From Bdellovibrionota bacterium FG-2 (GTDB lineage: Bacteria; Bdellovibrionota; UBA1018), in assembly GCA_051382305.1 (NCBI GenBank), contig JBBCAV010000067.1, positions 1 to 17,327 on the forward strand: DNA of 17,327 bases, in the 5' to 3' direction. The notes under the pieces were generated by a model. It worked only from the letters and a program-made list of their open reading frames with translations, searched no databases and was not told where the DNA came from. Each line of letters starts with the position of its first letter. Positions within the stretch are counted from its first letter, which is position 1. Shown here piece after piece: positions 1-17,105 of this stretch. The translations under genes were made by a program, and so were the position numbers.

Positions 1-78
1 ACTTTTGTCGATCCCATGACACCGATCCAAAAGCAGGTGCTCAAGCTGCTGAATATTCCAGTCTCCCAATTTTCTTAA
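1..78 (+). CDS. Transposase C-terminal fragment (IS1634-like), 5' partial
   Basis: Open frame from base 1 to TAA at 76-78, with a TPIQKQVLKLL motif. Confidence 0.7.
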   Translation, partial: TFVDPMTPIQKQVLKLLNIPVSQFS

Positions 79-128
79 TCACTGCCGCACCGTGAGAAAA
101 CTTGCGCGTTCTAAGTGCGGAATGTAGG
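1..128 (+). mobile_element. Right end of an IS1634-family insertion sequence, truncated by the window edge
   Basis: Frame +1 reads TFVDPMTPIQKQVLKLLNIPVSQFS* (1-78), resembling the LTPxQxxxLxLL C-terminus of IS1634 transposases. It is followed by AAGTGCGGAATGTAGG (113-128), which resembles the TGCGGAATGTNGG terminal IR I recall for this family. Confidence 0.7.
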
Positions 129-138
129 TTTGAATGCC

Positions 139-176
139 CATGCCGGCATACTATTAAGTAAATAGTATTATTGAAA
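139..176 (-). promoter_or_regulatory. Putative sigma70 promoter with an overlapping palindromic operator and a leaderless ATG
   Basis: Minus strand: TTTCAA (176-171), 17 nt, TAGTAT (153-148), 6 nt, ATG (141-139). A perfect inverted repeat ATACTATT-N5-AATAGTAT lies at 148-168. Confidence 0.45.
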
Positions 177-184
177 GGAAGGGA

Positions 185-814
185 TTACGTCGTCTTGACC
201 ACGATATCCGCAATAATATTCGCGGCTTCATCGGCACGATCAGCGGCATTGGAGAGATGCCGATACACTTCGCGCTTCTTAAGCATGCGCACGATTTCTG
301 GCGCATTTTCAGTCTCGGTGAACAATTCTGCGATGGCTTTGCGGTAAGTCTTTTCGACGTTGTTTTCAAAGCGCTTCGCTTTACGGGCGTGCTCACTGGC
401 AACGGCTGGGTGTTTTTCAATACGTTGAAGGGCGAGCAGAATTTCACGGGAGGCTTCTAAAAGCATGGTCGCCATATCCGTGAGATGTTGAGTGGGGGAA
501 ACTTGCAAGACCACCATTTCATCGACCGTCGAGTGGGCATAATCCAAAAGATCATCCACGGCGCGCGAGAGTTTGAATATATCTTCGCGATCAATGGGGG
601 TGACAAAAGTACGAGTCAAATCATCGATCAGCATCCGCCGGACTTCGTCGCCATCTTTTTCGGCGCGATTGACGCGTTTTTCGTTTTCGGGTGTTGGACT
701 TTTCATATAGGCCACAAGCCCTTCAAGACCCACGACCCCGATTTGGGCTTGCTGAATCAGGTATTCTCTAAAATTATCTTTTCGTGGTTTTAAAAAGTCA
801 TTGAACCAACTCAT
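185..814 (-). CDS. DUF47 / PhoU-like phosphate transport regulator (Pit accessory protein)
   Basis: Motifs EKDGDEVRR, TFVTPIDREDI, LSRAVDDLLD and ADRADEAANII. The start at ATG 814 overlaps the pit stop (ATGA). The longer ORF-track start lies inside pit. Confidence 0.92.
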   Translation of the reverse strand: MSWFNDFLKPRKDNFREYLIQQAQIGVVGLEGLVAYMKSPTPENEKRVNRAEKDGDEVRRMLIDDLTRTFVTPIDREDIFKLSRAVDDLLDYAHSTVDEMVVLQVSPTQHLTDMATMLLEASREILLALQRIEKHPAVASEHARKAKRFENNVEKTYRKAIAELFTETENAPEIVRMLKKREVYRHLSNAADRADEAANIIADIVVKTT

Positions 815-1854
815 AGTGTTTGCCTCAGTGCTAAGTAGATTAACCCTGCAAGAATTGAGGTGCAGGGGATGGTGATAATCCAGGTAATAATGATTTGCCG
901 ACTTACGCCCCACCGAACTTTCGAGAGTCGGTCGGCACTACCTACTCCCATGATGGCTGTAGAAACGACTTGAGTGGTGCTGACGGGGCCTCCGAGTAAC
1001 GAAGCACAAATAATGACTAACCCTGAGCCAATTTGGGTAGAAAACCCATCAATCGGTCGAATCCTAAAGAATCCTGAGCCCAAGGTGCGAATGAGTCTCC
1101 AGCCGCCAACGGACGTCCCCAAGGCAATGGCGCTTGCACTTAAGGCAACGACCCACATGGGTACTTCGAATTTGTTAATTTGGCCACTCGCCAGAAGTCC
1201 CATGGTGATGATTCCCATGGTCTTTTGTGCGTCATTGGTGCCATGCGAGAGGGCAAGGCCGATAGCGGTTACGACCTGACTTCTTCGAAAAAATTTATTG
1301 ATCGAAGGGCTTGATCCGCGCGCTAGGAATCGCCAAAGCTTAAGCAGAAAAAAGCCCGCAATAAAGCCAATCGCCGGGGATATGAGCAAGGAGGTGAGGA
1401 TCTTGAGTAGGCCCGCAACCTGAACGACTTCGAAAATTCTATAAAAATCTTGTAGGGTCACAATCCCTTTTGCACAGTGAACAATGGCGCTATGGGAAAC
1501 TGCAGCTCCGAGGAGGCCTCCGATCAAGGCGTGCGAAGAGCTTGAGGGAATTCCGGAGTGCCAGGTCAGGACGTTCCAGCAAACTGCCGCAACGAGCGAA
1601 GACAAAATCAGAGGCAGTGCAGTTGTGGCATCCGAGGGAAGAATCAGGACTCCTGCGCCAATCGTCTTAGCTACGGCTACCCCAAATAAAAAGGGCCCGA
1701 TAAATTCGGCAATCGCCGTGATGGTGAGGGCTTGTCTAGGTGAAAGCGCGCGAGAGGAAATCATCGTCGAAACGATGTTGGCGCTGTCGTTAAAGCCGTT
1801 CATGAAATCAAAAACAACGGCGACGGTAATGAATAGGATTAGGGTAAAGGTCAT
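811..1854 (-). CDS. pit: Inorganic phosphate transporter, PiT family
   Basis: PiT signatures NGFNDSAN, GIPSSSSHALIGG, HGTNDAQKTMG and PVSTTQ, with multiple transmembrane segments; paired with DUF47. Confidence 0.95.
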   Translation of the reverse strand: MTFTLILFITVAVVFDFMNGFNDSANIVSTMISSRALSPRQALTITAIAEFIGPFLFGVAVAKTIGAGVLILPSDATTALPLILSSLVAAVCWNVLTWHSGIPSSSSHALIGGLLGAAVSHSAIVHCAKGIVTLQDFYRIFEVVQVAGLLKILTSLLISPAIGFIAGFFLLKLWRFLARGSSPSINKFFRRSQVVTAIGLALSHGTNDAQKTMGIITMGLLASGQINKFEVPMWVVALSASAIALGTSVGGWRLIRTLGSGFFRIRPIDGFSTQIGSGLVIICASLLGGPVSTTQVVSTAIMGVGSADRLSKVRWGVSRQIIITWIITIPCTSILAGLIYLALRQTL

Positions 1855-1866
1855 GAATTATTTAGC

Positions 1867-1923
1867 AAAAAAGAGAGACTCAGCCCCGAAGGACTTGAGC
1901 TGCGGCCCTCCGGGGCTGAGTCT
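1867..1923 (-). terminator. Intrinsic terminator after the histone gene
   Basis: Minus strand AGACTCAGCCCCGGAGGGC-loop10-GTCCTTCGGGGCTGAGTCT forms a 13-bp perfect stem that extends to 19 bp with two G-U pairs, followed by CTCTTTTTT. Confidence 0.8.
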
Positions 1924-1929
1924 AATAGT

Positions 1930-2169
1930 TTAGCAAGAAGCCGGTGGCTCTTCGCTTCCTCCTGCGACCTCAAAATCACGGTCCATTACGGTTTTTCTGC
2001 CGTCTTTTTTTGCGTTTTCGACAGCTTGATCACATAAGGATCGCACGCGCGCCGAAAGAATTTCCATCACGGCGGCCGACGTATTCATTTGTGAAGATTC
2101 ACGGATGTAATTCTTCACTTTTGATGCGACGACTAGGGTTTCAGTTTTTGTGTTTTCTGCTTCAGTCAT
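1930..2169 (-). CDS. Bacterial histone-fold protein (Bd0055/HBb-like), 79 aa
   Basis: The core LVVASKVKNYIRESSQMNTSAAVMEILSARVRSLCDQAVENAKKDGRKTVMDRDF has the helix1 - MNTS loop - long helix2 - GRKTVxxxD (RxTxxxxD) pattern of prokaryotic histones. GGAG lies upstream of ATG 2169, so the ORF-track start at 2214 is probably too long. Confidence 0.92.
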   Translation of the reverse strand: MTEAENTKTETLVVASKVKNYIRESSQMNTSAAVMEILSARVRSLCDQAVENAKKDGRKTVMDRDFEVAGGSEEPPASC

Positions 2170-2170
2170 A

Positions 2171-2674
2171 TTATTCCACTCCCAAAAGTTCGACGTCAAA
2201 TACCAAGGTTGCATTGGGCGGAATCACGCCGCCGGCACCTTGTTCTCCATAACCAAGCTCTGAGGGAATCGTGAGTTTGCGCTTGCCGCCGACCTTCATT
2301 CCCACAACACCTTTATCCCAACCTTGAATGACCTGTCCGGCGCCGAGCGAAAACTTAAACGGCTCCTTATGATCCAAAGATGAATCAAATTTTTTGCCAT
2401 CCGTAAGCCAGCCCGTATAATGAACGGAGACCGTTTTCCCGGCCACGGCTTCAGCGCCAGTGCCGACTTTGAGATCTTCACTTTTTAATTCGGGTTTGGC
2501 ATCTGATTTTCCGGGCTGAGCTTGGGTCACAGGTGCTCCTTTTGCGGCTTCTGTTGTTGTTGCAGGTGCGGCGGTCGTTGCCGTTGTAGATTCTGGTGCC
2601 TTGTCTTTGTTAAAGCAGGAAACAAACAACAGCATTGAGGTAACGAGAACAAGAATAGATCGAAATGATTTCAC
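2171..2674 (-). CDS. FKBP-type peptidyl-prolyl cis-trans isomerase, predicted lipoprotein
   Basis: Motifs [27 protein letters not shown] and [15 protein letters not shown]-terminal signal ends in FVSC (lipobox-like), followed by a Thr/Ala-rich linker. GAGGAG precedes the GTG start. Confidence 0.95.
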
Positions 2675-2717
2675 AGGTAGTCTCCTCTTTCATGACTTTA
2701 GGTTGTCGTTCTAGGTT

Positions 2718-3413
2718 TTACCCGTAAGATGGCACGGCTTTTAGATTTCCGGAAGAAAATTCCTCAATCCACTGTGGAGTAATGCCCTGCAAATCTTTGA
2801 TCTTGGCGTGGGCTTGCGTCGTGTCTTGCTTGAGGTGGTTGGTTGCAGAAATCGCCACGACATAAAGCCCCGCTGCGTTAGCCGAAGTGATTCCAGCAAG
2901 GGAGTCTTCAAAAGCGAGGCCATGTCCCGGCTTGATGCCGAGTTCCTTCATGGCTGTAAGATAGGGGTCCGGCGCAGGTTTGCTCTTGGGATAATCTTCG
3001 GCACCTACCACGGTTTTGAAACAATGCCTGATTTTCAAGCGATCCAGCGCCCACAGAATATCGGACCGGGTGGAGCCACTGACGACGGCTAGGGGGAATT
3101 TTTCCGCGAGGCATCTTACCGCCTCGGCACTCCCCGTTACTTCGGGGAGTTCGCGTTTGAGTTCCTGGCGGTAGGTGCGCAGCACGTTGCTTTTGATCCT
3201 CTCGTGAGGAACGGCGACGGAATAAATGGAAAAGAGATATTCAAAGGCCGACTCCCATGTGCGACCTGTGATGAAGTCTGCGTCACCGGGTTTGAGTTTG
3301 ACGCCTACTTTTTCAAAGCATTTTTCTATGGCTCGGCCTGCTGCGGGCTCTGTGTCAATGAGGGTGCCATCGAGGTCAAAAAAGATTGCCTTGATCACTT
3401 CGCTTTTGGTCAC
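2718..3413 (-). CDS. HAD-superfamily phosphatase (subfamily IA, beta-PGM/CbbY-like)
   Basis: Motif I FFDLDGTLIDTE, motif II VVSGS, KPAPDPY and FEDSLAGI. Confidence 0.92.
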   Translation of the reverse strand: MTKSEVIKAIFFDLDGTLIDTEPAAGRAIEKCFEKVGVKLKPGDADFITGRTWESAFEYLFSIYSVAVPHERIKSNVLRTYRQELKRELPEVTGSAEAVRCLAEKFPLAVVSGSTRSDILWALDRLKIRHCFKTVVGAEDYPKSKPAPDPYLTAMKELGIKPGHGLAFEDSLAGITSANAAGLYVVAISATNHLKQDTTQAHAKIKDLQGITPQWIEEFSSGNLKAVPSYG

Positions 3414-3415
3414 GT

Positions 3416-4186
3416 TCAGCCTTTTCTGCGTTCATTTTTGACTTCAGGAGAGATCGTCTTGAGTCGCTCTAGAATGTCTTTGAGGAGATCTAAGAAAATG
3501 GTCTTGTTCATTTCATCGATTTTTGTAAATTTGATTCCAATGTAGCGAATTGTATTTCCATTTCGAGAGTTGATGTCATCAACCACGCGACAAATCATCC
3601 CCTCCATTTCGACGGCGACGGGAAACCAGCCGCGAGGCTCCATTCGAAGCAAGAGGCGGTGGCCAGGAAGAAGTGTTTGTGCGGGGAGGCTTTCGGTGGA
3701 TAAAAGGATTCCATTTGGGCTCAAGTTTCCTACATCAAAAATGTGGTCAACCGCTCTGACTTTGGGATTGGCCTGGGTCGCCGTGACCAGGGTTGTTCCT
3801 TGTACACGAAGAGGGAAGGTTTGAATGACGGAAAGCGACGGGATTCTCGGGTATTTGCGAATATACTCGGTCGGAAAAAATCCGTATTTTGCGATCAGTG
3901 CGTTCACTTTTTTGGCTTGCTCTGGAATGAGGCTAAACTTCAATCCCATGTGCTCGGAGACTTGAGTGGCTTCGCGAATGATCTGGGCTTCGGTTGTAAA
4001 GGTCATCGGCTCAGGGGTCTCAAGTTTCACAGTCACTTTGAGCTTTTTTGCAAAATGGCGCGCAGGATCGAGAGATCCCCAGGGCAGGCCGCCTACGCCG
4101 TAGGCGGAGAGGTTTTGCTTGTCATAAGTGTAGAAGTGGCCTTCAAAGGTGAATTCGAGTGTGCCTTTAACGTAGATGGGTAGCAT
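3416..4186 (-). CDS. PilZ-domain protein (probable c-di-GMP receptor, tandem PilZ-like)
   Basis: RKYPR (RxxxR), NLSPNG (D/NxSxxG) and YIGIKF in the C-terminal half. A degenerate NLSAYG...MGLKF occurs in the N-terminal half. Confidence 0.8.
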   Translation of the reverse strand: MLPIYVKGTLEFTFEGHFYTYDKQNLSAYGVGGLPWGSLDPARHFAKKLKVTVKLETPEPMTFTTEAQIIREATQVSEHMGLKFSLIPEQAKKVNALIAKYGFFPTEYIRKYPRIPSLSVIQTFPLRVQGTTLVTATQANPKVRAVDHIFDVGNLSPNGILLSTESLPAQTLLPGHRLLLRMEPRGWFPVAVEMEGMICRVVDDINSRNGNTIRYIGIKFTKIDEMNKTIFLDLLKDILERLKTISPEVKNERRKG

Positions 4187-4196
4187 CCTGTTTTCA

Positions 4197-4226
4197 ATCG
4201 TAACACTCAGTGGCTAGGGGATTCAA
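4197..4226 (-). promoter_or_regulatory. Putative internal sigma70 promoter for the PilZ-HAD-FKBP-histone run
   Basis: TTGAAT (4226-4221), 18 nt, then an extended -10 TGnTACGAT (hexamer 4202-4197), 10 nt before ATG 4186. Confidence 0.4.
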
Positions 4227-5233
4227 GGGCCAATAAGTATCTTGGAGAACTCTCGTGAAAGTTCCTGAGGAACGATGAAAACCGCGCCCTCTCGGGAACT
4301 CAGAGATGCCGTAAGAACCTTGGATTCAAGGTGGGGCCTAATTCGGAGTTCTGTCGCCGCGTTTTTGCGGTCCTTGAACACAATTCTCAAGAGGGGTTTC
4401 TTTTGAAGTGCTTCGAATGCAGTTTTTTCCCAAGCCGGGTCATCAGGGAAGCGCTGAATTTGAAAATGAGTGATTTTTTCGAGATAGGCTTGAACGTCCG
4501 TGTTAGGATCCAACTTCCGCACTTTTGGGTTCATTTCTTTCCATAGATCGCCGTGTCGTTCGATGTGGAGCGTTTTTTTTGCTCCGTTCCAAAATTCGAT
4601 TTCATCCACGTCATCCCCTTCAAAGGTGAGAAGGGTTCGTCTTCGGAGTGCCTCAAACCCGCGCAAATGCCCAAGCATAGAGACCCCGGCTCCTCGGACG
4701 CGGAAAACTCGTTTAGGTTCTTGGGGATCGTAGGCAAACACGTTTTCCTCACCCGACCCAAAGTGGATCTCAAACTCGGTTTGAGATCCCGGCTTATCTC
4801 GGTTTTCAGCGCTGAATCGTATGGCAAATCGGGGTGGGTTTAGTCCATAGGATTCCAGGGGGCCTTGGGGCGCAATATCCTCGATTTGAAGCGTACTGAG
4901 GGTGTCCAAGAGGTGTTCAATAAAATTGGAATAAGCCAGGCGGTCAGTGAGTTCTTGCGAAACGATTTTCCATGCGGAGAGTTCAGAGCCTGTTGGGCTT
5001 CGTTCGATTTGCGTACTAAAGCGATCGCCGGAATTGGGATCATTTTTCGCGATGCTCACTCGCGTTACAGTTTTGTAGTCAAACTTGAAAAAAAATCCGC
5101 CGGGTTTTCTGGCCAGACTTTGGCTCACGGCTTCTGAGGAACTTGGAGTTTTTTCAGGGCAGCCGGACAGGAGGGCCGCAAGGAGAATATGGCAAATGGC
5201 GATGGTGCAAGTCTGTTTCGATATCCTTGACAT
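4223..5233 (-). CDS. DUF4340-like lipoprotein
   Basis: Lipobox LLSGC, LESYGLNPP motif and two repeated beta-rich units of the DUF4340 type. AGGAG lies upstream of ATG 5233 (start choice inferred). Confidence 0.6.
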   Translation of the reverse strand: MSRISKQTCTIAICHILLAALLSGCPEKTPSSSEAVSQSLARKPGGFFFKFDYKTVTRVSIAKNDPNSGDRFSTQIERSPTGSELSAWKIVSQELTDRLAYSNFIEHLLDTLSTLQIEDIAPQGPLESYGLNPPRFAIRFSAENRDKPGSQTEFEIHFGSGEENVFAYDPQEPKRVFRVRGAGVSMLGHLRGFEALRRRTLLTFEGDDVDEIEFWNGAKKTLHIERHGDLWKEMNPKVRKLDPNTDVQAYLEKITHFQIQRFPDDPAWEKTAFEALQKKPLLRIVFKDRKNAATELRIRPHLESKVLTASLSSREGAVFIVPQELSREFSKILIGP

Positions 5234-5268
5234 ACTGTGGACGTACTCCTGGGTTGACATACTATGGA
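5227..5268 (+). repeat. 15-bp direct repeat with 27-bp period
   Basis: TTGACATACTGTGGA (5227-5241) and TTGACATACTATGGA (5254-5268), one mismatch. Confidence 0.8.
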
Positions 5269-5287
5269 GCCGTGGGTAGCGTTGCAA
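5254..5287. promoter_or_regulatory. Interlocked divergent sigma70 promoters
   Basis: Plus: TTGACA (5254-5259), 17 nt, TAGCGT (5277-5282). Minus: TTGCAA (5287-5282), 17 nt, TAGTAT (5264-5259). Confidence 0.6.
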
Positions 5288-5292
5288 GCACT

Positions 5293-5943
5293 ATGTCGAG
5301 TCTCGCATCGCAAAGCATCTGGGATATGATTCGAAGTGGTGGTTTTGCCATGTATCCGCTTCTTGTCTGCTCGCTTCTTTCTTGGGGCGTAATCTTTGAG
5401 CGATTGTGGAGCTACCGTCGTTTGGGTCATACCCTACACTCTTTTCATCTAAGTGCTATGAATCTGCTTTTGAGAAATGATCGAGATGCCTTGGAGCGTT
5501 TGTGCAGGGAGAGTGGGAATCTCCCGACGGCTTCGCTTGTGAGTATTGCGCTGGAGCGCCTGAATTCAAAAGACGATAGGCTTAGGCAGCGTTGGCAAGA
5601 AGCCATGGAGCGGAGACGGCAGCTTGTAAACCAAGACTTGAGGGCCAACCTCTGGATTTTGGGAACCATTGGGAGTGCCTCCCCGTTTATCGGCCTTTTT
5701 GGAACCGTGATTGGGATTTTACGCTCTTTCCAAGAAATGGCTAAAACTGGATCTGGCGGGTTTGCCGTCGTGGCCTCCGGGATTTCTGAGTCGCTCATTG
5801 CTACGGCAGCTGGAATTATTGTCGCGGTCATTGCCGTTATGTCCTATAACGCCTTTCAGACGCGTTTGAGTCGCTTTGTACTTGTCATTAGGCTGCAGGC
5901 AGAAGAGCTTGTGGAGCTGCTCGAGGCTAATAATGGCTCTTAA
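5293..5943 (+). CDS. MotA/TolQ/ExbB proton channel family protein
   Basis: Motifs GGFAMYPL, LGTIGSASPFIGLFGTVIGI and GISESLIATAAGI. Start moved to ATG 5293 because the ORF-track start overlaps the divergent gene. Confidence 0.95.
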   Translation: MSSLASQSIWDMIRSGGFAMYPLLVCSLLSWGVIFERLWSYRRLGHTLHSFHLSAMNLLLRNDRDALERLCRESGNLPTASLVSIALERLNSKDDRLRQRWQEAMERRRQLVNQDLRANLWILGTIGSASPFIGLFGTVIGILRSFQEMAKTGSGGFAVVASGISESLIATAAGIIVAVIAVMSYNAFQTRLSRFVLVIRLQAEELVELLEANNGS

Positions 5944-6379
5944 AGGGGCGCCTGATGCGGATAGCGCGGGGGCTGAAGGCGCCATATTCGCAGAGATCAA
6001 CATCACGCCACTGACGGATATTTTTTTGGTGCTTCTCATTATCTTTATGGTGACGAGTTCGGTGATGTCGCAGCTCGGGGTGGATGTGAATTTGCCTTCG
6101 GCGAGTAGCGCGACGTCGCAGGCTCAGCCGGAGGGTTTAGTGGTCACGTTGTTGCCGGCCGGTGCACTTCGAGTTAACGATACGTCCGTTTCTTCAGGAG
6201 ATTATGTTGCATTTGAGAGTGTTTTGCGCGAGACGTTTAAGAAAATGAAAACTCGTCTCGTGATCCTAGAGGGAGATAAGCAAGCGCTCTTAGGGTCAGC
6301 CATCGAGGTCATGGATCATGCCCGAAAGGCCGGGGCAGACAAATTTGCAATTGCGACGGCGCCGGATCAAGGGCGTTAA
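5933..6379 (+). CDS. ExbD/TolR family biopolymer transport protein
   Basis: Motifs EINITPLTDIFLVLLIIFMV, VNLPSA, GDK and VMD..RKAG. GAGG precedes ATG 5933, which overlaps the end of the ExbB gene. Confidence 0.95.
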   Translation: MALKGAPDADSAGAEGAIFAEINITPLTDIFLVLLIIFMVTSSVMSQLGVDVNLPSASSATSQAQPEGLVVTLLPAGALRVNDTSVSSGDYVAFESVLRETFKKMKTRLVILEGDKQALLGSAIEVMDHARKAGADKFAIATAPDQGR

Positions 6380-6398
6380 GTCCGTAGTTAAGTCCGTA
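6375..6398 (+). repeat. Exact 12-bp tandem duplication
   Basis: GTTAAGTCCGTA twice (6375-6386, 6387-6398), spanning the ExbD stop codon. Confidence 0.9.
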
Positions 6399-6418
6399 TA
6401 AGGAAAATAGGATTGTTC

Positions 6419-7039
6419 ATGGACGTACAAGGAAATCTCGATCAAAAACAAAGTTGGGGCACGTTTTTTAGGGGTGCGATTCGCGGGAAGACCAGGATTC
6501 TGTTGGCTTGGATCTTTGGGATTGCACTGGTTTTATCGGCCCGGCATTTTCCTTCTTGGCCTGGGGTGGTGGTTTGTTTCTTGGGCGCCACGCTTCGTTT
6601 TTGGGCGAGTGGATATTTAAGGAAAGATTCGCGTCCTGCGGTGGGCGGGCCTTATGCGTTTGTGAGAAACCCTCTCTATGTGGGGACCTTTCTTATGGCC
6701 ATCGGCACGGCGCTTGCGGTCGAAAATTATGTTCTTTTCGGGGTGAGTTCAGCCCTTTTTGCCGTGATCTATCACTTTATTGTTTTGGATGAAGAGGAGA
6801 AGTTACAGCGGATTTTTGGTGAGCCTTATTCGCATTACTGCGCTTTGGTGCCACGGTTTATTCCAAGGTTGATCCCTCTTAAGGCTGAACAGCTTGATCT
6901 TGTGAATCCCGATCGAACGCATCGGCGTTATTCGTTTGCAATTACGATGAAAAATCGTGCGTACGAAGCCTATGCGGCTTTTGCGGCGCTGATCGGCTTT
7001 GTGTGGCTGGTTGCGGCCGTCTGGCAGCGGCTGCTCTAG
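6419..7039 (+). CDS. Isoprenylcysteine carboxyl methyltransferase / phospholipid methyltransferase family membrane protein
   Basis: Motifs GPYAFVRNPLYVG, EEEKL..FGEPY..Y...VPRFIP, with several TM helices. AGGA precedes ATG 6419. Confidence 0.88.
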   Translation: MDVQGNLDQKQSWGTFFRGAIRGKTRILLAWIFGIALVLSARHFPSWPGVVVCFLGATLRFWASGYLRKDSRPAVGGPYAFVRNPLYVGTFLMAIGTALAVENYVLFGVSSALFAVIYHFIVLDEEEKLQRIFGEPYSHYCALVPRFIPRLIPLKAEQLDLVNPDRTHRRYSFAITMKNRAYEAYAAFAALIGFVWLVAAVWQRLL

Positions 7040-7040
7040 G

Positions 7041-8869
7041 CTAGTCGTTAGGCCAGATTAATTTATCGCATTCTTTTGGCGCGGGCAGTCCGTGGTCATT
7101 GCCCTCAAGGGAGAGGATGCCCGTTGCGTAGTTCAACGTTCGATATTTTGATTCGGGATGTTCATTGGCTATTTGCTCGTCGGGATGTCTATCTAGCCAT
7201 TCTTGATCGACCTCGGTTCGGCAGCTCGTCGCTAATAATTCAAAGGCTTTTTGCTTGGATTGTTTTCTTAAGTAGTGTTTTTGAAAAAGGTCTGCAAAAT
7301 ATTCATCTCGCTTATTTTCAAGATCCGTAAGCGAGGGGAGGGCCTTGGTCTTTTTCTCGAGGGCAAAGATGGCAAACTCGCCCAGCGTGATATTGGAGTC
7401 GAGACAGTCTAGGACTTCCTTTATCTTAGTTTGATCTTGAGGTGCCCATTTGAGCATCGAGGTGGGTTTGTGATCTTTTGCGGCAAACGTTTGAATAAAA
7501 TGTCCCCATTCGTGCATGAAAACAGCCTGTAGGAGGTCAGAATACTTTGGATCAAAGGCGATAAGGGTGGTGCCAAATTAATGGAGAATTCTTTGAATAC
7601 GGGGCTCCAAGCGGCGTTGAATTTGTTGCTTCTCGCCGCATCAGGGTCCATGAATTCTTGCGCCATGTTTGTGCTTTTGACTACTTGGTCAGAGGCTTGA
7701 GCAAAACTATCTTTAGCCTGCTTTGAAAATATCGAGTCTTGAAACATAGAGTTCAACAGGTCTCCCGTTTGCGTAACTATTTTCTGTCTCACAGGAATCA
7801 TCTCTTTTGTTTTTGCCGCTATTACCATTTTGCCATAGGTTTCACCCAAGCAGAGGCAGTCTTCTTGCGGGGCGTCGCCACATATCGCAGGCCATAGGGT
7901 TTTAGCGGTGCTTTGGAAAGTTTGAAATGTGTTCCAGGTAGAGCCATTATCGCGAGCTTTCTGGTAGCGCTCTCCTAACCGTGGCAGTTTGTAGGCGGGG
8001 TCACTTAAGGCAGCCCAAAGTACGTTGTAGGCGACGGCTTGGTTTAAGGTTACGGGCGCTTTGATTTTGAGGTTAGGTGACACATTTTTGTTCCAGCCGT
8101 TTTCTAATAATTCTTGCGGAATTTGCTCAAGTCTCGGGTCATCTACTGAGGTTACGTCCGCAGTTTTTGTGCAAAGCTCTCTACTGAGGCGAGAGCCTTG
8201 GAAGGTCTTTAGGTAATCCATTAGGACATAGGCGGCGGGGCTTTTCTCCGTGTTCTTTCGCGGACTTTCCTCGATTTTTGCGTATTCACTTGGTTCGAGT
8301 AGTTCTTTGCGTACGACGAGGCAATAATTAATGAGTGTGTCGCCAAACTCGGCGGCATAGTGGTCGGCGTTGAGCAACTTTTGGGACAAGTCTGACGCAC
8401 TTGGTTTTGTTGAGTCTTGATCAAGGGCAGCGAGGTTCTTTTCTTGCGTCGTGAGAACCTGAAAATCCCCCTTTCGGAGCTTTTCTACGCATTGGGGTTC
8501 GATGAGGTTTTGAATGGGTTGCGTCGCTAGAATTTGGGCGTTAATTCGTGATTCAATTTCTTTGGATCTTTTTTCGCCTGCATTGATTGAGGCGGTGCCA
8601 ATGGGGATGATTCCATTCTTTAGCCCGCTCTTGGGGCCGCAGATCTTGTCGTACGTTTCTTGCTAGGGCACAGAGTTGTAACAGGCGGGCGCCCGATTGA
8701 GTGTCGCGTAAAGATCGGTAAGGCTTTTTGATGAAAATTTTACCGACAGGTTTAATAAGCGATTATCCAGTCTTTCTTGTGCAGTTTCGAAATGTGCGTC
8801 CGGTTGAGCAATGGGTTGTGCGAAACAAAATGACGACATCAATGTGAACAATGCGATCAGGATTCTCAC
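7041..8869 (-). pseudogene. Disrupted secreted zinc metallopeptidase (gluzincin, M13/M48-like), about 609 aa if repaired
   Basis: Signal peptide VRILIALFTLMSSFCFA. An in-frame TAG sits at 8665-8663 and the frame stays open into ORF 7421-8389. A one-base shift near 7575-7577 joins NAAWSP..FSIN to FGTTLIAF..AVFMHEWGH. EYFAD and HPESKYR follow. Confidence 0.8.
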
Positions 8870-8931
8870 GATCACGATTGTACCCTGAATCTTGATGTGA
8901 AGAACTAGGCAAATTATTCCGCCCAAATACC

Positions 8932-10293
8932 CTAAAACACCATTGACAGTTCAGCAATCCCATAGGGGGCAAGCGTGGTGTTGCGCCCCAAATACGGGAG
9001 ATTGATTGTGAGTCCCATTTGTAGCGGGAGTGGAAAGTCATTTTTCAGAAAAAATGGGATCGTCGAAAACGAGGCCCCGACAATCAGGGTCTCGGTGTAG
9101 ATGTCGGTCTTTTCGGAGAGATAGGTGTAGTCTCGATCGGACTTAGAGCCTTCATAGCGATCCCGCTGTTTCCATCCCCATTCATAATCACCGCTGATGC
9201 TAAATGAAGAAGTGAAATTGAGGGAAGCGCCTAAGGTGAGTGATTCTTTGGTGCCGAGTTTTTGAGTCACGTTCTCTTCGTCGGAAAGATCGGGAATCAC
9301 CACATCGGAACTTTTGCGCACGCGAAGCATGCGGTGACCAAAAAGGGGTTGGGTCCACTTTATCCCTTGCGAAAGGGTTATCCAATCCCAGGGCGTAACG
9401 TTGACGATGTGGGCCACGCCCATATCCCAGGAGCCTTGTCCAAAATCTGTCTCGGTGAGGATGGCAGGGTTTTTTGTTTTGCCCGTGGGAGCGGTCGTTG
9501 TCGTTTGAAACGAGGCTAGAAAAGTTGGAGGTTGGGTAGGCACATTGAAGTCGGCGCCTAGTTTGAGCCAATTGTAGCGAGAGAGGAGGTAGATGTCTCC
9601 CAGTCCCGTTCCTTGCCAATCTTCAACGCGTGCATAACCTTTGTCGGTGAGCACGCCTTGAAACGTGTCGTCCGAAATATTGCGCACTAAATCCAGTGCG
9701 TCTCGCAGTTCGGGCAGGACGCTTGGATTTGAAGAGACAAACCCATAATAGATGTCGTTGGCCGTGTTGTTTCCAGAGATTGAATGAGCGACCTTCACTT
9801 GGGTGCGAAGCGTGGGGACGACGAGAGCAACGGTGAGTTGATCCGTCACCCCATGTTGGAGCGATACCACGGCTTCTTGGCGCTGCGCTTCGACGCCGAC
9901 ATTGAGTTTTCCTAAGGAGAGGGCGTCTCCTAAAAGAGGGGCGGAGGCGTTTTGCGTGATTCCGTAGAAACCATTTTCACGCTCCTTCTTCTCGTAGCGC
10001 TTGCCCGTGGCGTTTAAGAAGTTTACGAGTTTTGAGAGACGAGCATCAAAATCCTTCAGTTTTGAAGAGGAGAGCTCGAAGTTGTAGTCTTTGGTGAGGG
10101 ATTGGATGTCGCCATTGTTATCAAATGTTTCAGTGATCCCTGTGGCTTGGGCATAGACGAAGGTCATGCGCGAACGTCCGCCCGGAAGAACACGTGCGTC
10201 TTCAGCAGACGTAGGAGTGCATAAAGATGTGCAAATTCCAATAGTTGAGATGGAAAAGGTCAGCAATTTGCGGGCAGAAGGCATGAGCGACAT
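8932..10293 (-). CDS. Outer-membrane beta-barrel protein (SphA / MetA-pathway-like transporter family)
   Basis: Signal peptide, GLGDI, APTG and GQGSWD motifs, alternating beta-strand pattern, C-terminal Phe. GGAG precedes the ATG. Confidence 0.65.
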   Translation of the reverse strand: MSLMPSARKLLTFSISTIGICTSLCTPTSAEDARVLPGGRSRMTFVYAQATGITETFDNNGDIQSLTKDYNFELSSSKLKDFDARLSKLVNFLNATGKRYEKKERENGFYGITQNASAPLLGDALSLGKLNVGVEAQRQEAVVSLQHGVTDQLTVALVVPTLRTQVKVAHSISGNNTANDIYYGFVSSNPSVLPELRDALDLVRNISDDTFQGVLTDKGYARVEDWQGTGLGDIYLLSRYNWLKLGADFNVPTQPPTFLASFQTTTTAPTGKTKNPAILTETDFGQGSWDMGVAHIVNVTPWDWITLSQGIKWTQPLFGHRMLRVRKSSDVVIPDLSDEENVTQKLGTKESLTLGASLNFTSSFSISGDYEWGWKQRDRYEGSKSDRDYTYLSEKTDIYTETLIVGASFSTIPFFLKNDFPLPLQMGLTINLPYLGRNTTLAPYGIAELSMVF

Positions 10294-10436
10294 GGAGTTC
10301 TCCGGTTAGAAACGCAGAGCAGAATTTGTCATAAAATGCGCGACGCGTCAAGAGTGGAGTTTTTGAATTTGTGGATAGCAAAATAGATGCACCCGTGATA
10401 ACACTATGCGTCACGAAAGAGAGGTCCTCCGTGGTT

Positions 10437-12605
10437 ATGAAAAAGCATCGGTTTCTGCGCCCACTCGTATTGTCGTTGTTGGTCTCGGGTTCGCTCTCTG
10501 GTGGCGCTTTTGCTTATGATCTTCGTGTTTCGGTGAGCGAAGCGCGCGAGGTTTTGAATCATATTTTGGAGGATGCGCGACTTCACCCCGAACCTAAGGG
10601 GAGCAGTGAAGCGGAGAGGCGTGAGTTTTCTGCTAATCTTCTTCGCTCGTATCGTAAAGGTGGCGCGCCGGGCGCGATGTCGGCAAAATATGGCGAGGGC
10701 CCGATAGAAATCAAAACCGCGCCTTTTCTAGGAGTGGTGCTCAACCAAAAAATGCCGGAGATTTATCCCGCAGCCTACGCAAAAGCGTACAAAGAAAATT
10801 TCGAAAAAGAAGTGAAGCGCATTCATTTAGAAACGCTGTTTGATGAGGGGCTGATATCAAATATCGTCAATGGTACTGTGCCGGCGGACCAAAAGGAGGT
10901 GGCCGATCAAATAGGCCTTTGTTTGGCCACGAAAGTCGCCGCCGGAAAATCCCCGCAATGTGAGCTCGATGAATCGGATCGCGTTAAGAATCCAAGTTTT
11001 TTTGCCAAGGCCTGGGTGAAGCTAACGTGCGGTCATTCGTGGCTTGAGCCCAGCGATTGCCGTGCAAGAAAAGTTATTTTTAATGCGGCCAAAGGGCAGC
11101 TCTTGGCGGCCCGTCTTGATCCCAAAGTGCAGGAGCAGGTGGCCCGCGAGTTTGCCGTGAAGTTTTCGCCTCTTTTTAGAGAAGGATTTTCCGAGGAAAT
11201 CTCTGGGCGAATTGCGGCCTTTCCCGCCCTTGTTTCGCAAAAGTTTCGAGGCGAAGAGGATCCGTTTTGGTCGGATCATACGCCCTTGGTAGAATTGGAC
11301 CCCACGTCTTTTGGAAAACTGAGTCTCAAAGAGTTCACTTCGAGCGTCCGTGCGGATATGGGGCTATCGGCGCTTCTTATAAGTTCTGAGGATGCAAAAC
11401 TTCGGGGTCTCTCGGCGGCCTTGTTTTATGCTTCGGCTAATAAAATGTTGTTGCTGGCTGGAGGCGAAGAAGCAGTGATTCGGAATGGTCGCTTGGAGTT
11501 CGCACCCGGAGGTGGTGTTGATTTAGCTCATCCTGAAAAAGCCCCGGCACTTCTCTTGGGGGCTTTTGGAGGTTGGGGTGCGCAAGGTGCGCCTGGAGAT
11601 TTTCAGTTTTCCCCTTGGGACTTCGCCGCCTACGATCCCACGGCTGAGGCGCATCCTACGGCTTTTCGAGTTTTTCCATCGCTCTTTTTATTGGGGCCTA
11701 GAGGTGTTCCCAGAGCTTCGCCCGGTTCGTCGCCTTACGAAGCCATCGGGGATCTCGCTGATATCGTAACGATGTCGCTTGATTTCTTGCGGTACACTCT
11801 CCCCGGAACCCCATTTTGGGAGCATTTTGGCGGCAACGACGAACTCGAAAAAATCTTGGAACCCTCGAGCCCTATTCTTTTTCCGCGCGATGGACGCTTG
11901 TTGGCGGTCGGAGTTTTGGCAGCGGCACTTAAGAATCTCATCGCCCCGATTCAAGGGCATGTTGAAATGACTGATCCAGGAAGTTCCCAAGGCGCTTTGG
12001 GGGTATTGTTTCACGAGATCGTTAGGCTTTCGGGTCGCGATCCCGTGGGGATTTCAGTGCGAGGGGTTTCGAAAATGTTGCTCGCTGCCTCTGAGTTGGA
12101 CTCCTCGTTAGCTCAAGATCCGGCTGTGCCCGCAGAGCTGCTCGCAGTGCTGCCAAAGCTGGGCGATGCACTGCAAGTGGGCGCCCTTGCAATGTCTGCT
12201 AAGGGTCAATCTTCTGACGGTGGTTTTTGTGATCGATTGGATGTTCCGCAAACTTCGTCTCGGACGCTGTCTTCAAATATCTGGGGACTCCGGGCTTTGG
12301 GGCGAGCTTATGAACGCTCACAAATGTCGGTGATTAAATTGAGCCTCAAGTCCGGCTGGCATTTTTTAGAGTCTTTTTGGCCTGAAAACGGCAATCTTAA
12401 GCCCATTGAGGGCGGCGGCGCGCAGAGCGTAAACCCCAGTGAACTTTGGGCGCTCCTCAGGCTGTGGGATGAATCGCAAGGGCGTGTGCGCCAAGATCTT
12501 TCGGGAGAAATGGATTGGACCAAGTGGGATCGCAGAATGGAGACTTTGCGGGCCACACTTTGGGCGCAACTGAAAACTGAGCACGGCCCCGTGCCGCTGA
12601 ATTAG
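10437..12605 (+). CDS. Large secreted hypothetical protein, possibly with a C-terminal alpha/alpha-toroid region
   Basis: Long ORF with signal peptide MKKHRFLRPLVLSLLVSGSLSGGAFA. GAGG upstream (GTG 10431 is an alternative start). QSSDGGF resembles a prenyltransferase/squalene-cyclase repeat. Confidence 0.75.
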   Translation: MKKHRFLRPLVLSLLVSGSLSGGAFAYDLRVSVSEAREVLNHILEDARLHPEPKGSSEAERREFSANLLRSYRKGGAPGAMSAKYGEGPIEIKTAPFLGVVLNQKMPEIYPAAYAKAYKENFEKEVKRIHLETLFDEGLISNIVNGTVPADQKEVADQIGLCLATKVAAGKSPQCELDESDRVKNPSFFAKAWVKLTCGHSWLEPSDCRARKVIFNAAKGQLLAARLDPKVQEQVAREFAVKFSPLFREGFSEEISGRIAAFPALVSQKFRGEEDPFWSDHTPLVELDPTSFGKLSLKEFTSSVRADMGLSALLISSEDAKLRGLSAALFYASANKMLLLAGGEEAVIRNGRLEFAPGGGVDLAHPEKAPALLLGAFGGWGAQGAPGDFQFSPWDFAAYDPTAEAHPTAFRVFPSLFLLGPRGVPRASPGSSPYEAIGDLADIVTMSLDFLRYTLPGTPFWEHFGGNDELEKILEPSSPILFPRDGRLLAVGVLAAALKNLIAPIQGHVEMTDPGSSQGALGVLFHEIVRLSGRDPVGISVRGVSKMLLAASELDSSLAQDPAVPAELLAVLPKLGDALQVGALAMSAKGQSSDGGFCDRLDVPQTSSRTLSSNIWGLRALGRAYERSQMSVIKLSLKSGWHFLESFWPENGNLKPIEGGGAQSVNPSELWALLRLWDESQGRVRQDLSGEMDWTKWDRRMETLRATLWAQLKTEHGPVPLN

Positions 12606-12617
12606 GCTTGGTTTAAC

Positions 12618-12645
12618 TTGTGCATCTCTGGTGAGGTGTTAAACT
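12618..12645 (+). promoter_or_regulatory. Putative promoter of the carboxypeptidase gene
   Basis: TTGTGC, 16 nt, extended -10 TGnTAAACT (12640-12645). An inverted repeat GTTTAAC/GTTAAAC lies at 12611-12617 and 12638-12644. AAGGAG precedes ATG 12696. Confidence 0.35.
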
Positions 12646-12695
12646 AAAACCGTAATTCAACCTTTTTTATAGAACTCTCATGAAGGAGACTTCTC

Positions 12696-14000
12696 ATGTT
12701 GCTACGGAATGCGTTCTTTTTGATCCTCCTTATTCTTATGGCAAGTAGCTCTGTCGTAGTCGCTCGCAACTCGCGCGCGGATGTCCCGCCTGTGTCTCCG
12801 GACTTTGAGCAGGCCTTTGTGCAGATCTTAGCCAAAGACAAAGTCGCGCGCTCAAAACTGGCCGATCTCGGTGTGAGTATCGAAGCTCTTCGCTCTGACA
12901 GTATATGGGGATTTGTGAGTCCTTCGGTTCTAGCGCGCGTGAAGGCCGCTCATTTCAAGGTTACTTCTCATACACCCGCTCACTTGCTTGATTTTCCAGC
13001 ACAAGACGGGCGCTTTCATAATTATCAAGAGACGCTCGCAGCGTTGCGAGATCTTAATGCAAAACACCCGGACATCACCCGTTTGCAGAGTATTGGCAAG
13101 TCCAATGAAGGGCGTGACCTTTGGGCGTTTCATTTAAATACAACTCCTGAGGCGCTCTCGAGTGGCCTTAGCGGGAAACCTGGTGCGATCTTCATGGGAA
13201 ACCATCATGCGCGGGAGCATTTGAGTGTGGAGGTTCCGCTGATGCTTGCGGAGTACCTGCTTGCGAATCGGGCGGATCCCAAGATTGCGGCACTCTTGGA
13301 GTCACGCGATATTTGGGTGATCCCCATGGTGAATCCGGATGGCGCGGAGTGGGATATTGCTTCGGGCAGCTATCGCTCTTGGCGCAAGAATCGGCGTGAC
13401 AATGGCAACGGCGTTTTTGGCGTCGATCTGAATCGTAACTATGGATTCAAATGGGGAACCGGTGGATCTTCTGCGGATCCCACGAGTGATGTGTTTAAAG
13501 GCAAGACTCCTTTTTCAGAACCTGAGACGCAGGTTGTTCGCGATTTTGTCGAAGCGCATCTGAATGCGAAAGTCTTGCTCACGTTTCACTCCTATAGTGA
13601 GTTGATTCTTTATCCTTGGGGTCATAAATATAATCCCGTCGAAAACACGCGCGATCATGACGTATTTACGAAGATGGCGACGACGATGGCGAAGTGGAAC
13701 GGCTATACTCCCGAGCAATCCAGCGCTTTGTATATCGCCAGTGGCGATACGACGGATTGGGCTTATGGCGCGCACGGAATTTTTGCGTTTACCTTTGAAC
13801 TCTCTCCAGCCGATGCTTGGGGCGGGGGAGGGTTTTATCCCGGCGCAAAGGTGATCGACAAAGTGTTTCAGGATAATCTGAATCCTTGTCTCTATATGCT
13901 CGATGTCGCTGATGATCCTTACCGCGTTTTAGGAAACCAACCCACGGGCGGTTTGCGCTCGTATGTGGAGCCTTGGGTCGATCCCGCGGTGCGGTGGTAG
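12696..14000 (+). CDS. Secreted M14 zinc carboxypeptidase (carboxypeptidase T-like) with propeptide
   Basis: Motifs HAREH, NPDG, WRKNR, GVDLNRN, FSEPET, FHSYS, GDTTDWAY and TFEL, plus a signal peptide. Confidence 0.95.
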   Translation: MLLRNAFFLILLILMASSSVVVARNSRADVPPVSPDFEQAFVQILAKDKVARSKLADLGVSIEALRSDSIWGFVSPSVLARVKAAHFKVTSHTPAHLLDFPAQDGRFHNYQETLAALRDLNAKHPDITRLQSIGKSNEGRDLWAFHLNTTPEALSSGLSGKPGAIFMGNHHAREHLSVEVPLMLAEYLLANRADPKIAALLESRDIWVIPMVNPDGAEWDIASGSYRSWRKNRRDNGNGVFGVDLNRNYGFKWGTGGSSADPTSDVFKGKTPFSEPETQVVRDFVEAHLNAKVLLTFHSYSELILYPWGHKYNPVENTRDHDVFTKMATTMAKWNGYTPEQSSALYIASGDTTDWAYGAHGIFAFTFELSPADAWGGGGFYPGAKVIDKVFQDNLNPCLYMLDVADDPYRVLGNQPTGGLRSYVEPWVDPAVRW

Positions 14001-14021
14001 AACCTATATTAATGGTCTATT

Positions 14022-14411
14022 ATGTCGGCACCCATGAAAAAACCCCGTACTGATTCTGATGACAATGTGGAGCTGGTCGTTCGTGATCGCTCCGCCCGCG
14101 TCTTTCGCCTTCCTCGGGAGAAGATGCGTGGCCTTGTTAGTTTGATTCGAGAGCATGAAGTCAAGCAAGACGATCAGCTCATTTCCGCTGACGAGGTATT
14201 TAAGAGCCTTTATGAAAAATATGGAAAGGTAGGCACGGTAATACGTGGCGCTCGTGCCAAGGAGGGATTGACTCAGACTGAGCTTGCTAAGAAGCTGGGT
14301 GGAACTCAAGCTGACATTTCTCAAATGGAAACGAGCAAACGACCCGTGGGAAAGAAGATGGCGCACCGGCTTGCAGAGATTTTTGAGACCGATTATCGGA
14401 TTTTTCTCTAA
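14022..14411 (+). CDS. XRE/HTH_3 transcriptional regulator, HigA-like antitoxin architecture
   Basis: C-terminal HTH IRGARAKEGLTQTELAKKLGGTQADISQMETSKRPVGKKMAHRLA. Start is ATG 14022 or 14034. Confidence 0.88.
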   Translation: MSAPMKKPRTDSDDNVELVVRDRSARVFRLPREKMRGLVSLIREHEVKQDDQLISADEVFKSLYEKYGKVGTVIRGARAKEGLTQTELAKKLGGTQADISQMETSKRPVGKKMAHRLAEIFETDYRIFL

Positions 14412-14430
14412 ATATACAATACTCGTTCTT

Positions 14431-16596: not shown

Positions 16597-16602
16597 TGCG
16601 TC

Positions 16603-16631
16603 GATATACTCAAGGAACGGTGAAATGTCAC
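16603..16631 (-). promoter_or_regulatory. Putative promoter giving a leaderless transcript
   Basis: GTGACA (16631-16626), 17 nt, TATATC (16608-16603), 6 nt, ATG 16596. No SD. Confidence 0.4.
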
Positions 16632-16666
16632 CCCTTCTTTTGGTTCGTGGCATAGCAGCTATTTTA

Positions 16667-16708
16667 TTGACAGATGTTCATGGATGAACTATTTGAGTTC
16701 ACAAGGAG
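16667..16708 (+). promoter_or_regulatory. Putative promoter with overlapping palindromic operators and an SD
   Basis: TTGACA (16667-16672), 17 nt, TATTTG. Palindromes GTTCAT-GG-ATGAAC (16676-16689) and TGAACT-N5-AGTTCA (16685-16701). AAGGAG at 16703-16708. Confidence 0.5.
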
Positions 16709-16721
16709 TCTTAAATTTATT

Positions 16722-17006
16722 ATGAAAACATTGTTTTTGGTTCTCGCTGTGTCGCTTTTTTCTGCTAGTGCATTTGCCGATCAAGTTCAGAGCAAATACG
16801 CTTATGATTGTTGCCCTTGTACTTGTATGTCACATATTCGCGGAGCTTACGGAACGTGTGCGGCAGCAGTCGCAGCATGCAAAGCGGGACGTCCTGCTAG
16901 CGGCGGTGGCAGCAGTACCAAGAAATGCGGCCAAGACGAAATCTCTGCAAAAGGAACCGCCGCAAAAAAAGCCGTGACGGTTGCCAGCCGCACGACCGCG
17001 AAATAA
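16722..17006 (+). CDS. Small secreted Cys-rich protein, 94 aa
   Basis: Classic signal peptide MKTLFLVLAVSLFSASAFA. The mature part has CCPCTC plus three more Cys and a basic tail. AAGGAG lies upstream. Confidence 0.8.
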   Translation: MKTLFLVLAVSLFSASAFADQVQSKYAYDCCPCTCMSHIRGAYGTCAAAVAACKAGRPASGGGSSTKKCGQDEISAKGTAAKKAVTVASRTTAK

Positions 17007-17105
17007 GATTCCTTTATTCCCGTTGCCCGTTTTTGACCTCTGCGCGGCAAGGCAATTTTTGCCTGGCTAAGCCGGCGTGTTCCTAGGGTTTACATTGAAT
17101 TTCAC

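Follow-up and report, generated by a model that had tools for sequence, protein, structure and literature searches.

An HBb-type histone with acidic tails in an uncultured Bdellovibrionota bacterium

What kind of histone is encoded on contig JBBCAV010000067.1 of Bdellovibrionota bacterium FG-2 (GenBank assembly GCA_051382305.1), and what might its acidic tails contribute? The analysed stretch, positions 1 to 17,327 of the contig (hereafter the window), carries on its minus strand a histone gene of 79 codons followed by a TAA stop (positions 1930-2169, stop at 1930-1932). The ATG-to-TAA frame from 2169 to 1930 yields a translation identical to the 79-amino-acid open reading frame (ORF) of a preliminary description, which had been made from the DNA letters and had taken the gene for a stand-alone, tailed bacterial histone. 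We propose, with a probability of roughly 0.8, that its product is a “bacterial dimer” histone of the HBb/Bd0055 type from an uncultured Bdellovibrionota bacterium. The gene is probably transcribed together with those of an HAD-family hydrolase and an FKBP-type peptidyl-prolyl isomerase, and the tails of the protein may tune its affinity for DNA.

Family, fold and DNA contacts

As the preliminary description had supposed, the window histone matches HBb (Bd0055) of Bdellovibrio bacteriovorus HD100 (phmmer against the Protein Data Bank [PDB], E = 2.5e−15 for 8cmp and 3e−15 for 8fvx). The alignment is gapless over residues 9-67 (59 residues). HBb, for which 9ezz and 9f0e are further structures, is an alpha3 “bacterial dimer” histone, and the window protein has the same fold. 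In an AlphaFold2 model based on 64 homologues (pLDDT 82.4), helices span residues 15-26, 32-55 and 63-69, and both ends are low-confidence coil. When this model was compared with the PDB using Foldseek, ranks 1 to 5 were all HBb chains (rmsd 0.5-1.0 Å over 55-58 columns, 57-58% identity, target-normalised TM score 0.87-0.93), so that the histone fold expected from the sequence is also found in the predicted structure. HLp, HTkC and then archaeal and eukaryotic histones rank below them.

The other histone categories fit less well. HLp of Leptospira (PDB 9qt0/9qt1), a face-to-face (FtF) histone, and HTkC (9f2c) have the alpha3-truncated fold in common with the window protein (Foldseek rmsd 0.9-1.3 Å) but are only 32-38% identical to it. 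Membership in the FtF category was rejected, as HLp matches at E = 1.9e−6 and 37-38% identity versus E = 2.5e−15 and 58% for HBb; HTkC matches at E = 6.7e−5. Bacterial FtF histones are described as tetramers with mostly positive tails (available part of Schwab et al. 2024, PMC11390915), whereas the tails of the window protein are acidic. A nucleosomal archaeal histone of the HMfB type was likewise rejected, with model scores below their cut-offs and phmmer E values of 0.17-0.48 for HMfA and HMfB.

The histone-fold core occupies codons 12-66 (positions 1972-2136, minus strand) and comprises alpha1 (15-26), alpha2 (32-55) and the start of alpha3 (63), together with an S16-K17 motif and the RKTVMDRD clamp. 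The residues R58-K59-T60-V61-M62-D63-R64-D65 supply both the RKTxxxD motif and the RD clamp, and R58, K59, V61, D63, R64 and D65 are invariant across the 64 aligned homologues. With alpha3 confined to residues 63-69, the protein has the short alpha2 and truncated alpha3 arrangement. The histidine of archaeal tetramerisation is missing: K55 aligns with A48 of HBb, a position for which mutant data exist (Hocher et al. 2023, PMC10627809; available part).

According to the available part of Hu et al. 2024 (PMC11317129), the main DNA contacts of HBb are N22, R57, S9, T53, T8, S24, K10, K12, K52 and K16, and its RD clamp is R51-D58, reinforced by D49. Under the offset of +7 given by the phmmer alignment, the contacts map to N29, R64, S16, T60, A15, S31, K17, K19, K59 and R23 of the window histone. 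Eight of the ten are identical, one is a conservative replacement (K16 to R23) and one is changed (T8 to A15). The clamp residues R58, D65 and D56 are all kept. The S-K motif and basic alpha1 are likewise present, S16, K17 and K19 being identical and R23 taking the place of HBb K16. Across the 64 aligned homologues, the contact columns are invariant or nearly so. The likeness to HBb therefore includes the 57-58% identity over the gapless 59 residues, the S-K motif, the RKTV loop, the RD clamp and eight of ten contacts.

Membership of the window protein in the HBb/Bd0055-type “bacterial dimer” category, a grouping based on how similar the sequences are (Schwab et al. 2024, PMC11390915; available part), is thus well supported. 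By homology to HBb, the protein would be a handshake homodimer held together by antiparallel alpha2 helices. It would contact the backbone of DNA at the minor groove, in a non-specific manner, via the N-terminus of alpha1 and the L1 and L2 loops, and it would bend the DNA. It would then act as a nucleoid-associated protein alongside HU/IHF, for which the genome has four full-length matches to PF00216.

Homologues of the histone number 459 at E = 0.001 or better. Among 61 genomes (that of the window, G000, and 60 relatives), 53 have a histone homologue; for comparison, 67% of Bdellovibrionota genomes are reported to have a Bd0055 homologue (available part of Hocher et al. 2023, PMC10627809). 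Hundreds of metagenomic homologues, at 60-84% identity, are closer to the window histone than HBb is. Between the window and its congener (genome G001), 21 changed codons in the 55-codon core are synonymous and 5 are non-synonymous; we read this ratio, like the 4 to 1 in the last 10 codons of the gene, as a sign of purifying selection. Judged by the sequence comparisons, namely the homologues in 53 of 61 genomes and the synonymous excess in the core, the ORF is more than a product of chance. With this query, no second histone paralogue was found in the genome of the window, whose assembly of 433 contigs is 85% complete; the only other match has E = 0.71. The protein is an expected further member of a known family, and as a histone it adds little.

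Other arrangements of the same domain occur among the homologues. Five metagenomic proteins of 126-149 amino acids (P0003, P0004, P0068, P0243 and P0247) are tandem doublets with two HBb-type folds per chain, and two of the five have acidic or proline-rich C-terminal tails. The 276-amino-acid protein P0286 joins an HBb-type domain to a helical, charged C-terminal extension of about 200 residues, which is neither a ZZ nor a doublet form.

Acidic tails and overall charge

To describe the tails, we used the best 120 of the 459 homologues. Eleven of these, tandem doublets and N-truncated fusions of the histone to a ZZ zinc finger, were left out, and the remaining 109 are single-domain proteins of at most 85 amino acids, the window protein included (short homologues). 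The N-terminal tail of the window histone, MTEAENTKTET (codons 1-11, positions 2137-2169, minus strand), is acidic, with a net charge of −2, and disordered: residues 1-10 have a mean pLDDT of 56, and no secondary structure precedes residue 15 in the model. It must be translated, because there is no in-frame alternative start between Met1 and the fold. The segment ahead of LVVxSK carries a net negative charge in every one of the 109 short homologues and abounds in E, T, N, S and G. Its length varies from 6 to 22 residues with a median of 13, and the 11 residues of the window protein fall below the median. Against congener G001, the 11 codons of the tail show 0 synonymous and 5 non-synonymous changes. 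On these alignments, the composition of the N-terminal tail is kept and its sequence is not.

The tail counts place an acidic N-terminal tail as the norm of the family and B. bacteriovorus HBb as its tail-less outlier. Where HBb shows about three residues ahead of LVV and a few beyond the fold, the window protein is extended by 11 acidic residues on the N-terminal side and 13 on the C-terminal side. HBb is thus atypical in lacking the acidic N-terminal tail of all 109 short homologues, and in vitro results obtained with it may overstate the DNA affinity or filament formation of the family. The available part of Hocher et al. 2023 (PMC10627809) states that in most bacterial singlet histones N-terminal tails of a long and disordered kind are missing and restricts one analysis to proteins of at most 65 residues; this limit may be the reason why short acidic tails go unremarked. 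A literature search pairing “acidic tail” with bacterial histone or HBb, which did not cover survey supplements, found no relevant paper.

It is the other end of the protein that departs from the family. The C-terminal extension, EVAGGSEEPPASC (codons 67-79, positions 1933-1971, minus strand; net charge, −3), continues alpha3 through residues 67-69 and ends in the disordered GGSEEPPASC. After DRDF, 97 of the 109 short homologues have at most 2 residues and 12 have at least 3, and a 13-residue tail ending in Cys is found only in the window protein and congener G001. The notion of a “tailed variant” in the preliminary description consequently holds for the C-terminal tail (2 of 109), while the acidic N-terminal tail is ordinary (109 of 109 net negative). 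An acidic C-terminal tail ending in Cys is, as far as the compared sequences go, the only distinctive trait of the protein, and it is genus-specific.

Conservation of the C-terminal tail, which had been named as a check of the tail idea, is found in the congener. Residues 67-69 differ (EVA and PGF), and the last 10 codons encode GGSEEPPASC in the window and GGSEEPAASC in G001, with 9 of 10 residues identical and 4 of the 5 changed codons synonymous (P = 0.018 under a crude neutral expectation in this one comparison). Looser look-alikes (GGGETPTPAS, GGGEETPA and GGGPPPAA) end the proteins of a few relatives, and the sole look-alike in the phylogenetic tree, L004 (GGGETPTPAS), is placed there apart from the window histone. 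Unrelated C-terminal tails of 5-22 residues (3-22 in the wider range) are scattered through the family. Some tails (L078, L081, L095, L066 and protein P0038) end in -EAA, -QAA or -PAA. These endings recall what we take to be the pattern of ssrA-type ClpXP degradation tags.

Calculated isoelectric points (pI) are 5.1 for the whole protein, 7.87 without the C-terminal tail and 9.43 for the core. The value for the whole protein is the second lowest of the 109 short homologues (median of the other 108, 7.84). Both tails emerge beside the DNA-binding face, one at the first turn of alpha1 and the other just after R64. Because the tails adjoin this face and shift the pI from 9.4 to 5.1, their likeliest role would be to tune DNA affinity and self-association. 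The disordered acidic tails might compete with DNA intramolecularly and so lower or adjust both. We offer this role tentatively, at somewhat below even odds. In archaeal coiled-coil histones, too, the histone fold carries acidic, disordered tails at its N- and/or C-terminus, and those tails are proposed to occlude the DNA-binding alpha1 face (available part of Schwab et al. 2024, PMC11390915). The coiled-coil histones, however, belong to a DNA-bridging tetramer category with no close sequence relation to the window histone, and the tail role is a proposal there as well.

The same HBb-type histone could also have tails with no specific role, the N-terminal one serving as a spacer and the C-terminal one being a tolerated recent extension that arose, for example, from a shifted stop codon. 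A lack of any specific role would suit the free drift of the N-terminal tail between congeners (0 synonymous and 5 non-synonymous changes in 11 codons), the sporadic, unrelated C-terminal tails of 3-22 residues and the confinement of the 13-residue tail to one genus. However, the net negative charge of the N-terminal tail in 109 of 109 proteins argues for selection on charge, and the largely synonymous changes in GGSEEPxASC (4 of 5; P = 0.018 under the crude neutral expectation) also speak against it. We consider functionless tails rather unlikely.

The acidity of the protein could be taken further. At pI 5.1, the histone might bind DNA weakly and not be a bulk nucleoid organiser. It might instead be a histone-fold factor with a protein-binding or regulatory role, or else a buffered, inducible pool with tails that modification, the redox state of Cys79 or proteolysis would switch. 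A pI second lowest among 109, the terminal Cys kept in both members of the genus and the -AA endings of C-terminal tails in several other family members would agree with such a protein. Its DNA-contact residues and clamp, however, are fully typical of the family, the histones closest to it are of the ordinary free kind and come from the same locus, and the gene annotation of the window gives no evidence of a modification enzyme nearby. We therefore regard this possibility as very improbable.

Several observations weigh against our proposal of an HBb-type, co-transcribed histone with affinity-tuning tails. The window histone does not reach the cut-off of the Pfam model CBFD_NFYB_HMF (19.3 versus 21.4 bits) or of the NCBIfam model archaea_histone (23 versus 50), and because of these scores its family placement rests on the similarity to HBb and the predicted fold. 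Ala stands in place of the HBb contact T8. A protein that coats DNA in bulk would not usually have a net charge of −2 and a pI of 5.1, values that could mean weak DNA binding. Conservation of the C-terminal tail is seen in one congener, and co-transcription is read from gene spacing only.

ZZ-histone fusions and a histone-less ZZ protein

The preliminary description noted a likeness between the window histone and the histone domain of ZZ histones, and this likeness is real: 41 of 44 longer homologues are ZZ-histone fusions (30 with the full ZZ Cys/His pattern before the histone domain) or N-truncated calls of the same architecture (11). The other three are two tandem doublets and a protein with a long C-terminal extension. 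The fusions are up to about 75-80% identical to the window histone. Thirteen clear cases occur among the 61 genomes, and those of G054 and G056 are 71-74% identical to the window protein in the histone domain, with LCDQAVE...RKTVMDRDF in common. Although Pfam does not recognise the ZZ finger of the fusions, the spacing of its ligands agrees at 7 of 8 positions with that given for D0LYE7 (available part of Schwab et al. 2024, PMC11390915). ZZ histones such as D0LYE7 and that of B. bacteriovorus carry at the C-terminal end the same bacterial-dimer-type histone domain as the window protein (same source). The N-terminal zinc finger of that class, with its C4 and C2H2 sites, is absent from the window polypeptide, whose only Cys residues are C46 and C79, which has no His and whose ATG lies 1 nucleotide (nt) after the FKBP stop codon; in this genome the ZZ module is a separate gene on another contig.

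Is the window histone, then, a form liberated from the ZZ class, as had been suggested? We inferred a maximum-likelihood tree from 89 distinct histone cores (55 columns); at least nine loci with unmatched core patterns (L025, L027, L054, L098 and L102-L106) were left out. The window histone and that of the congener make up a starred pair, nested in a group of free histones linked to FKBP. Recent liberation is unsupported, because the gene forms part of an HAD-FKBP-histone array that is conserved, and because the histones nearest to it are free and encoded at the same FKBP-linked locus. Over the whole tree, about 8 changes of the ZZ label are required (bootstrap trees give 6-8), at least 2 of them forced by the starred branches. 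The direction of these changes cannot be read from the tree, which is unrooted and weakly resolved, with bootstrap values that had not settled.

A change between the two forms can be followed at one locus within one genus. Three species have a free 66-amino-acid histone (L110-L112, in genomes G045, G058 and G060), and two have a fusion at the same locus (L114 in G054, also L136 in G056). The fusion locus encodes a 182-amino-acid ZZ-histone and has an extra membrane ORF of 198 amino acids, and the flanks of the two forms are colinear at 71-73% identity. The first residue of the free histone coincides exactly with an internal Met in the fusion, so that the locus shows a clean fusion/fission polymorphism and the acidic N-terminal tail is homologous to the end of the fusion linker. 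This start point is in line with functionless tails, the rather unlikely case set out above, in which the N-terminal spacer would be compositionally constrained and derived from the same stretch as the end of the ZZ-histone linker. Read from these loci and the tree, fusion and fission of ZZ and histone modules are recurrent, even at one locus within a genus.

The genome of the window also encodes a ZZ protein without a histone domain. Its gene, outside the window on another contig (G000:C42:13304-13639, minus strand, equivalent to L116:1501-1836, minus strand), specifies 112 amino acids with a pI of 9.47. The protein has a ZZ-type Cys/His pattern, a NHRESWAEER helix, a linker rich in A, P and E and a C-terminal PKVILRR-like motif, and it has no histone fold. 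Its family contains 1336 proteins at E = 0.001 or better, and the source names listed are all “hypothetical protein.” Among the best 120 of the 1336, the ZZ pattern is present in 119, a histone motif in 0 and a C-terminal (K/R)VILRR-like motif in 113. The position of this motif corresponds to the start of alpha1 in the fusions; MAFFT alignment of ZZ-only and ZZ-histone proteins sets PKVILRR against SKxKNYIR of alpha1, a placement that is ambiguous. Because no ZZ model of Pfam or NCBIfam matched the ZZ proteins and searching the sequences in the PDB with a profile yielded 0 matches, the ZZ assignment rests on the Cys/His spacing (7 of 8 D0LYE7 positions) and on weak Foldseek ranks. The best PDB neighbours of the AlphaFold2 model (pLDDT 71) are the eukaryotic ZZ domains of p62, BIG and HERC2 with an H3 tail, at E = 0.2-0.6, and none reaches 0.001. 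Conserved synteny around the ZZ-only gene extends to the congener only and hence cannot show an origin by truncation of a ZZ-histone.

Do the free histone and the ZZ protein act together? One could imagine a split system in which the free histone and the 112-amino-acid protein form a ZZ-histone in trans, with the ZZ module reading the N-terminus or acidic tails of the histone or co-binding DNA. The argument that suggests such a functional link is the fusion of the two modules elsewhere (13 clear cases among the 61 genomes and 41 of the 44 longer homologues), although fusion does not require that the domains touch. ZZ proteins occur in 33 of the 53 genomes with a histone match versus 1 of the 8 without, an association that is overstated because related genomes are not independent, and 20 of the 53 histone-bearing genomes have no ZZ match. 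A free histone accompanies the ZZ gene in all 19 histone-positive genomes where that gene is clearly histone-less. The two proteins carry opposite charges (pI 5.1 for the histone and 9.47 for the ZZ protein), and the best structural neighbours bind protein N-termini (p62, BIG and HERC2 with the H3 tail, E = 0.2-0.6), but no fold match reaches E = 0.001 and the histone and ZZ genes are unlinked. In addition, tail reading by bacterial ZZ domains was judged unlikely because the residues of the eukaryotic pocket are not conserved (available part of Schwab et al. 2024, PMC11390915). We deem a split system improbable.

A more specific version would cast the histone and the histone-less ZZ protein as a bacterial pair of histone tail and tail reader, the two halves of a module that is fused elsewhere. 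The ZZ finger would read either the N-terminus of the histone or its acidic tails in the way that eukaryotic ZZ domains recognise the N-terminus of H3 or N-degrons, the C-terminal PKVILRR motif would dock on the histone or on DNA, and the repeated fusion and fission would be recorded in the genomes. This pairing we consider a long shot, with about one chance in ten. What the large unannotated family of histone-less ZZ proteins co-occurring with free histones does provide is a testable handle on the role of the ZZ module. Together with the acidic N-terminal tail and the recurrent ZZ fusion and fission, it is a modest lead rather than a discovery.

Gene neighbourhood and expression signals

On the minus strand of the window, genes for a PilZ protein, the HAD-family hydrolase, the FKBP-type peptidyl-prolyl isomerase and the histone lie head to tail, with a terminator after the histone. 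The HAD gene (positions 2718-3413, minus strand; Pfam HAD_2, E = 1.1e−31) is next upstream of the FKBP gene (positions 2171-2674, minus strand; Pfam FKBP_C, E = 6.3e−40) in this same-strand array. Beyond the terminator are genes for a PitA-like phosphate transporter and then a PhoU-like protein. The histone ATG is only 1 nt from the TAA of the FKBP gene (2171-2173), and a Shine-Dalgarno-like GGAG tetramer (positions 2179-2182, minus strand) precedes the ATG by 9 nt within the last codons of FKBP. The ribosome-binding site of its own that the preliminary description had assigned to the histone is thus present, but inside the FKBP gene and not in an intergenic region. Both the position of GGAG and the 1-nt gap mean that the histone gene is tightly coupled to the FKBP gene, and it is not a stand-alone gene as first described.

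The association extends to other genomes. Of 19 relatives’ loci, 17 have FKBP directly upstream of the histone, as do 26 of 75 loci from species-representative genomes; nearly all of these are labelled Bdellovibrionota-type (the pairing is recorded for loci among L003-L021 and L032-L061). An HAD gene lies upstream of FKBP in 10 of the 19 relatives’ loci, as seen within flanks of 1.5 kb only. The histone gene probably shares a transcript with HAD and FKBP, its upstream neighbours; this transcript would run through the histone and end at the strong intrinsic terminator. The FKBP protein has a hydrophobic, lipobox-like leader (…LLFVSC), and this N-terminus indicates that it is probably exported; for this reason, no functional tie between FKBP and the histone is seen beyond shared transcription.

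The strong terminator noted earlier is borne out by folding. It spans positions 1865-1923 (minus strand) and consists of a hairpin with a 19-bp stem (1876-1923) and a U-run, with a folding energy of −39.2 kcal/mol (z = −6.15) that none of 200 shuffled sequences equalled. A scan for consensus terminators flagged only a 5-pair hairpin (1875-1887), the 3′ part of the same terminator. In congener G001, a strong hairpin and T-run likewise follow the histone stop directly (L003:1740-1830; the window counterpart is 1840-1929). The stem sequences of the two are unrelated, so that the function is conserved and the sequence is not.

Two other candidate signals were set aside. An alternative start at 2214, which would give 94 codons, overlaps the FKBP gene, and all homologues start at M-T/S-E. 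A promoter-like site at 2170-2199 (minus strand) has a −10 hexamer ending 1 nt before the ATG, and its transcript would begin inside the ORF.

Elsewhere in the window, five ORFs of 158-744 codons have no Pfam match at E = 0.001; coordinates for such ORFs are 7041-8389 (minus), 8932-10293 (minus), 10371-12605 (plus) and 14431-16653 (minus). Their neighbours are ExbB/ExbD-like genes and genes for a PEMT/ICMT-like methyltransferase and an M14 carboxypeptidase.

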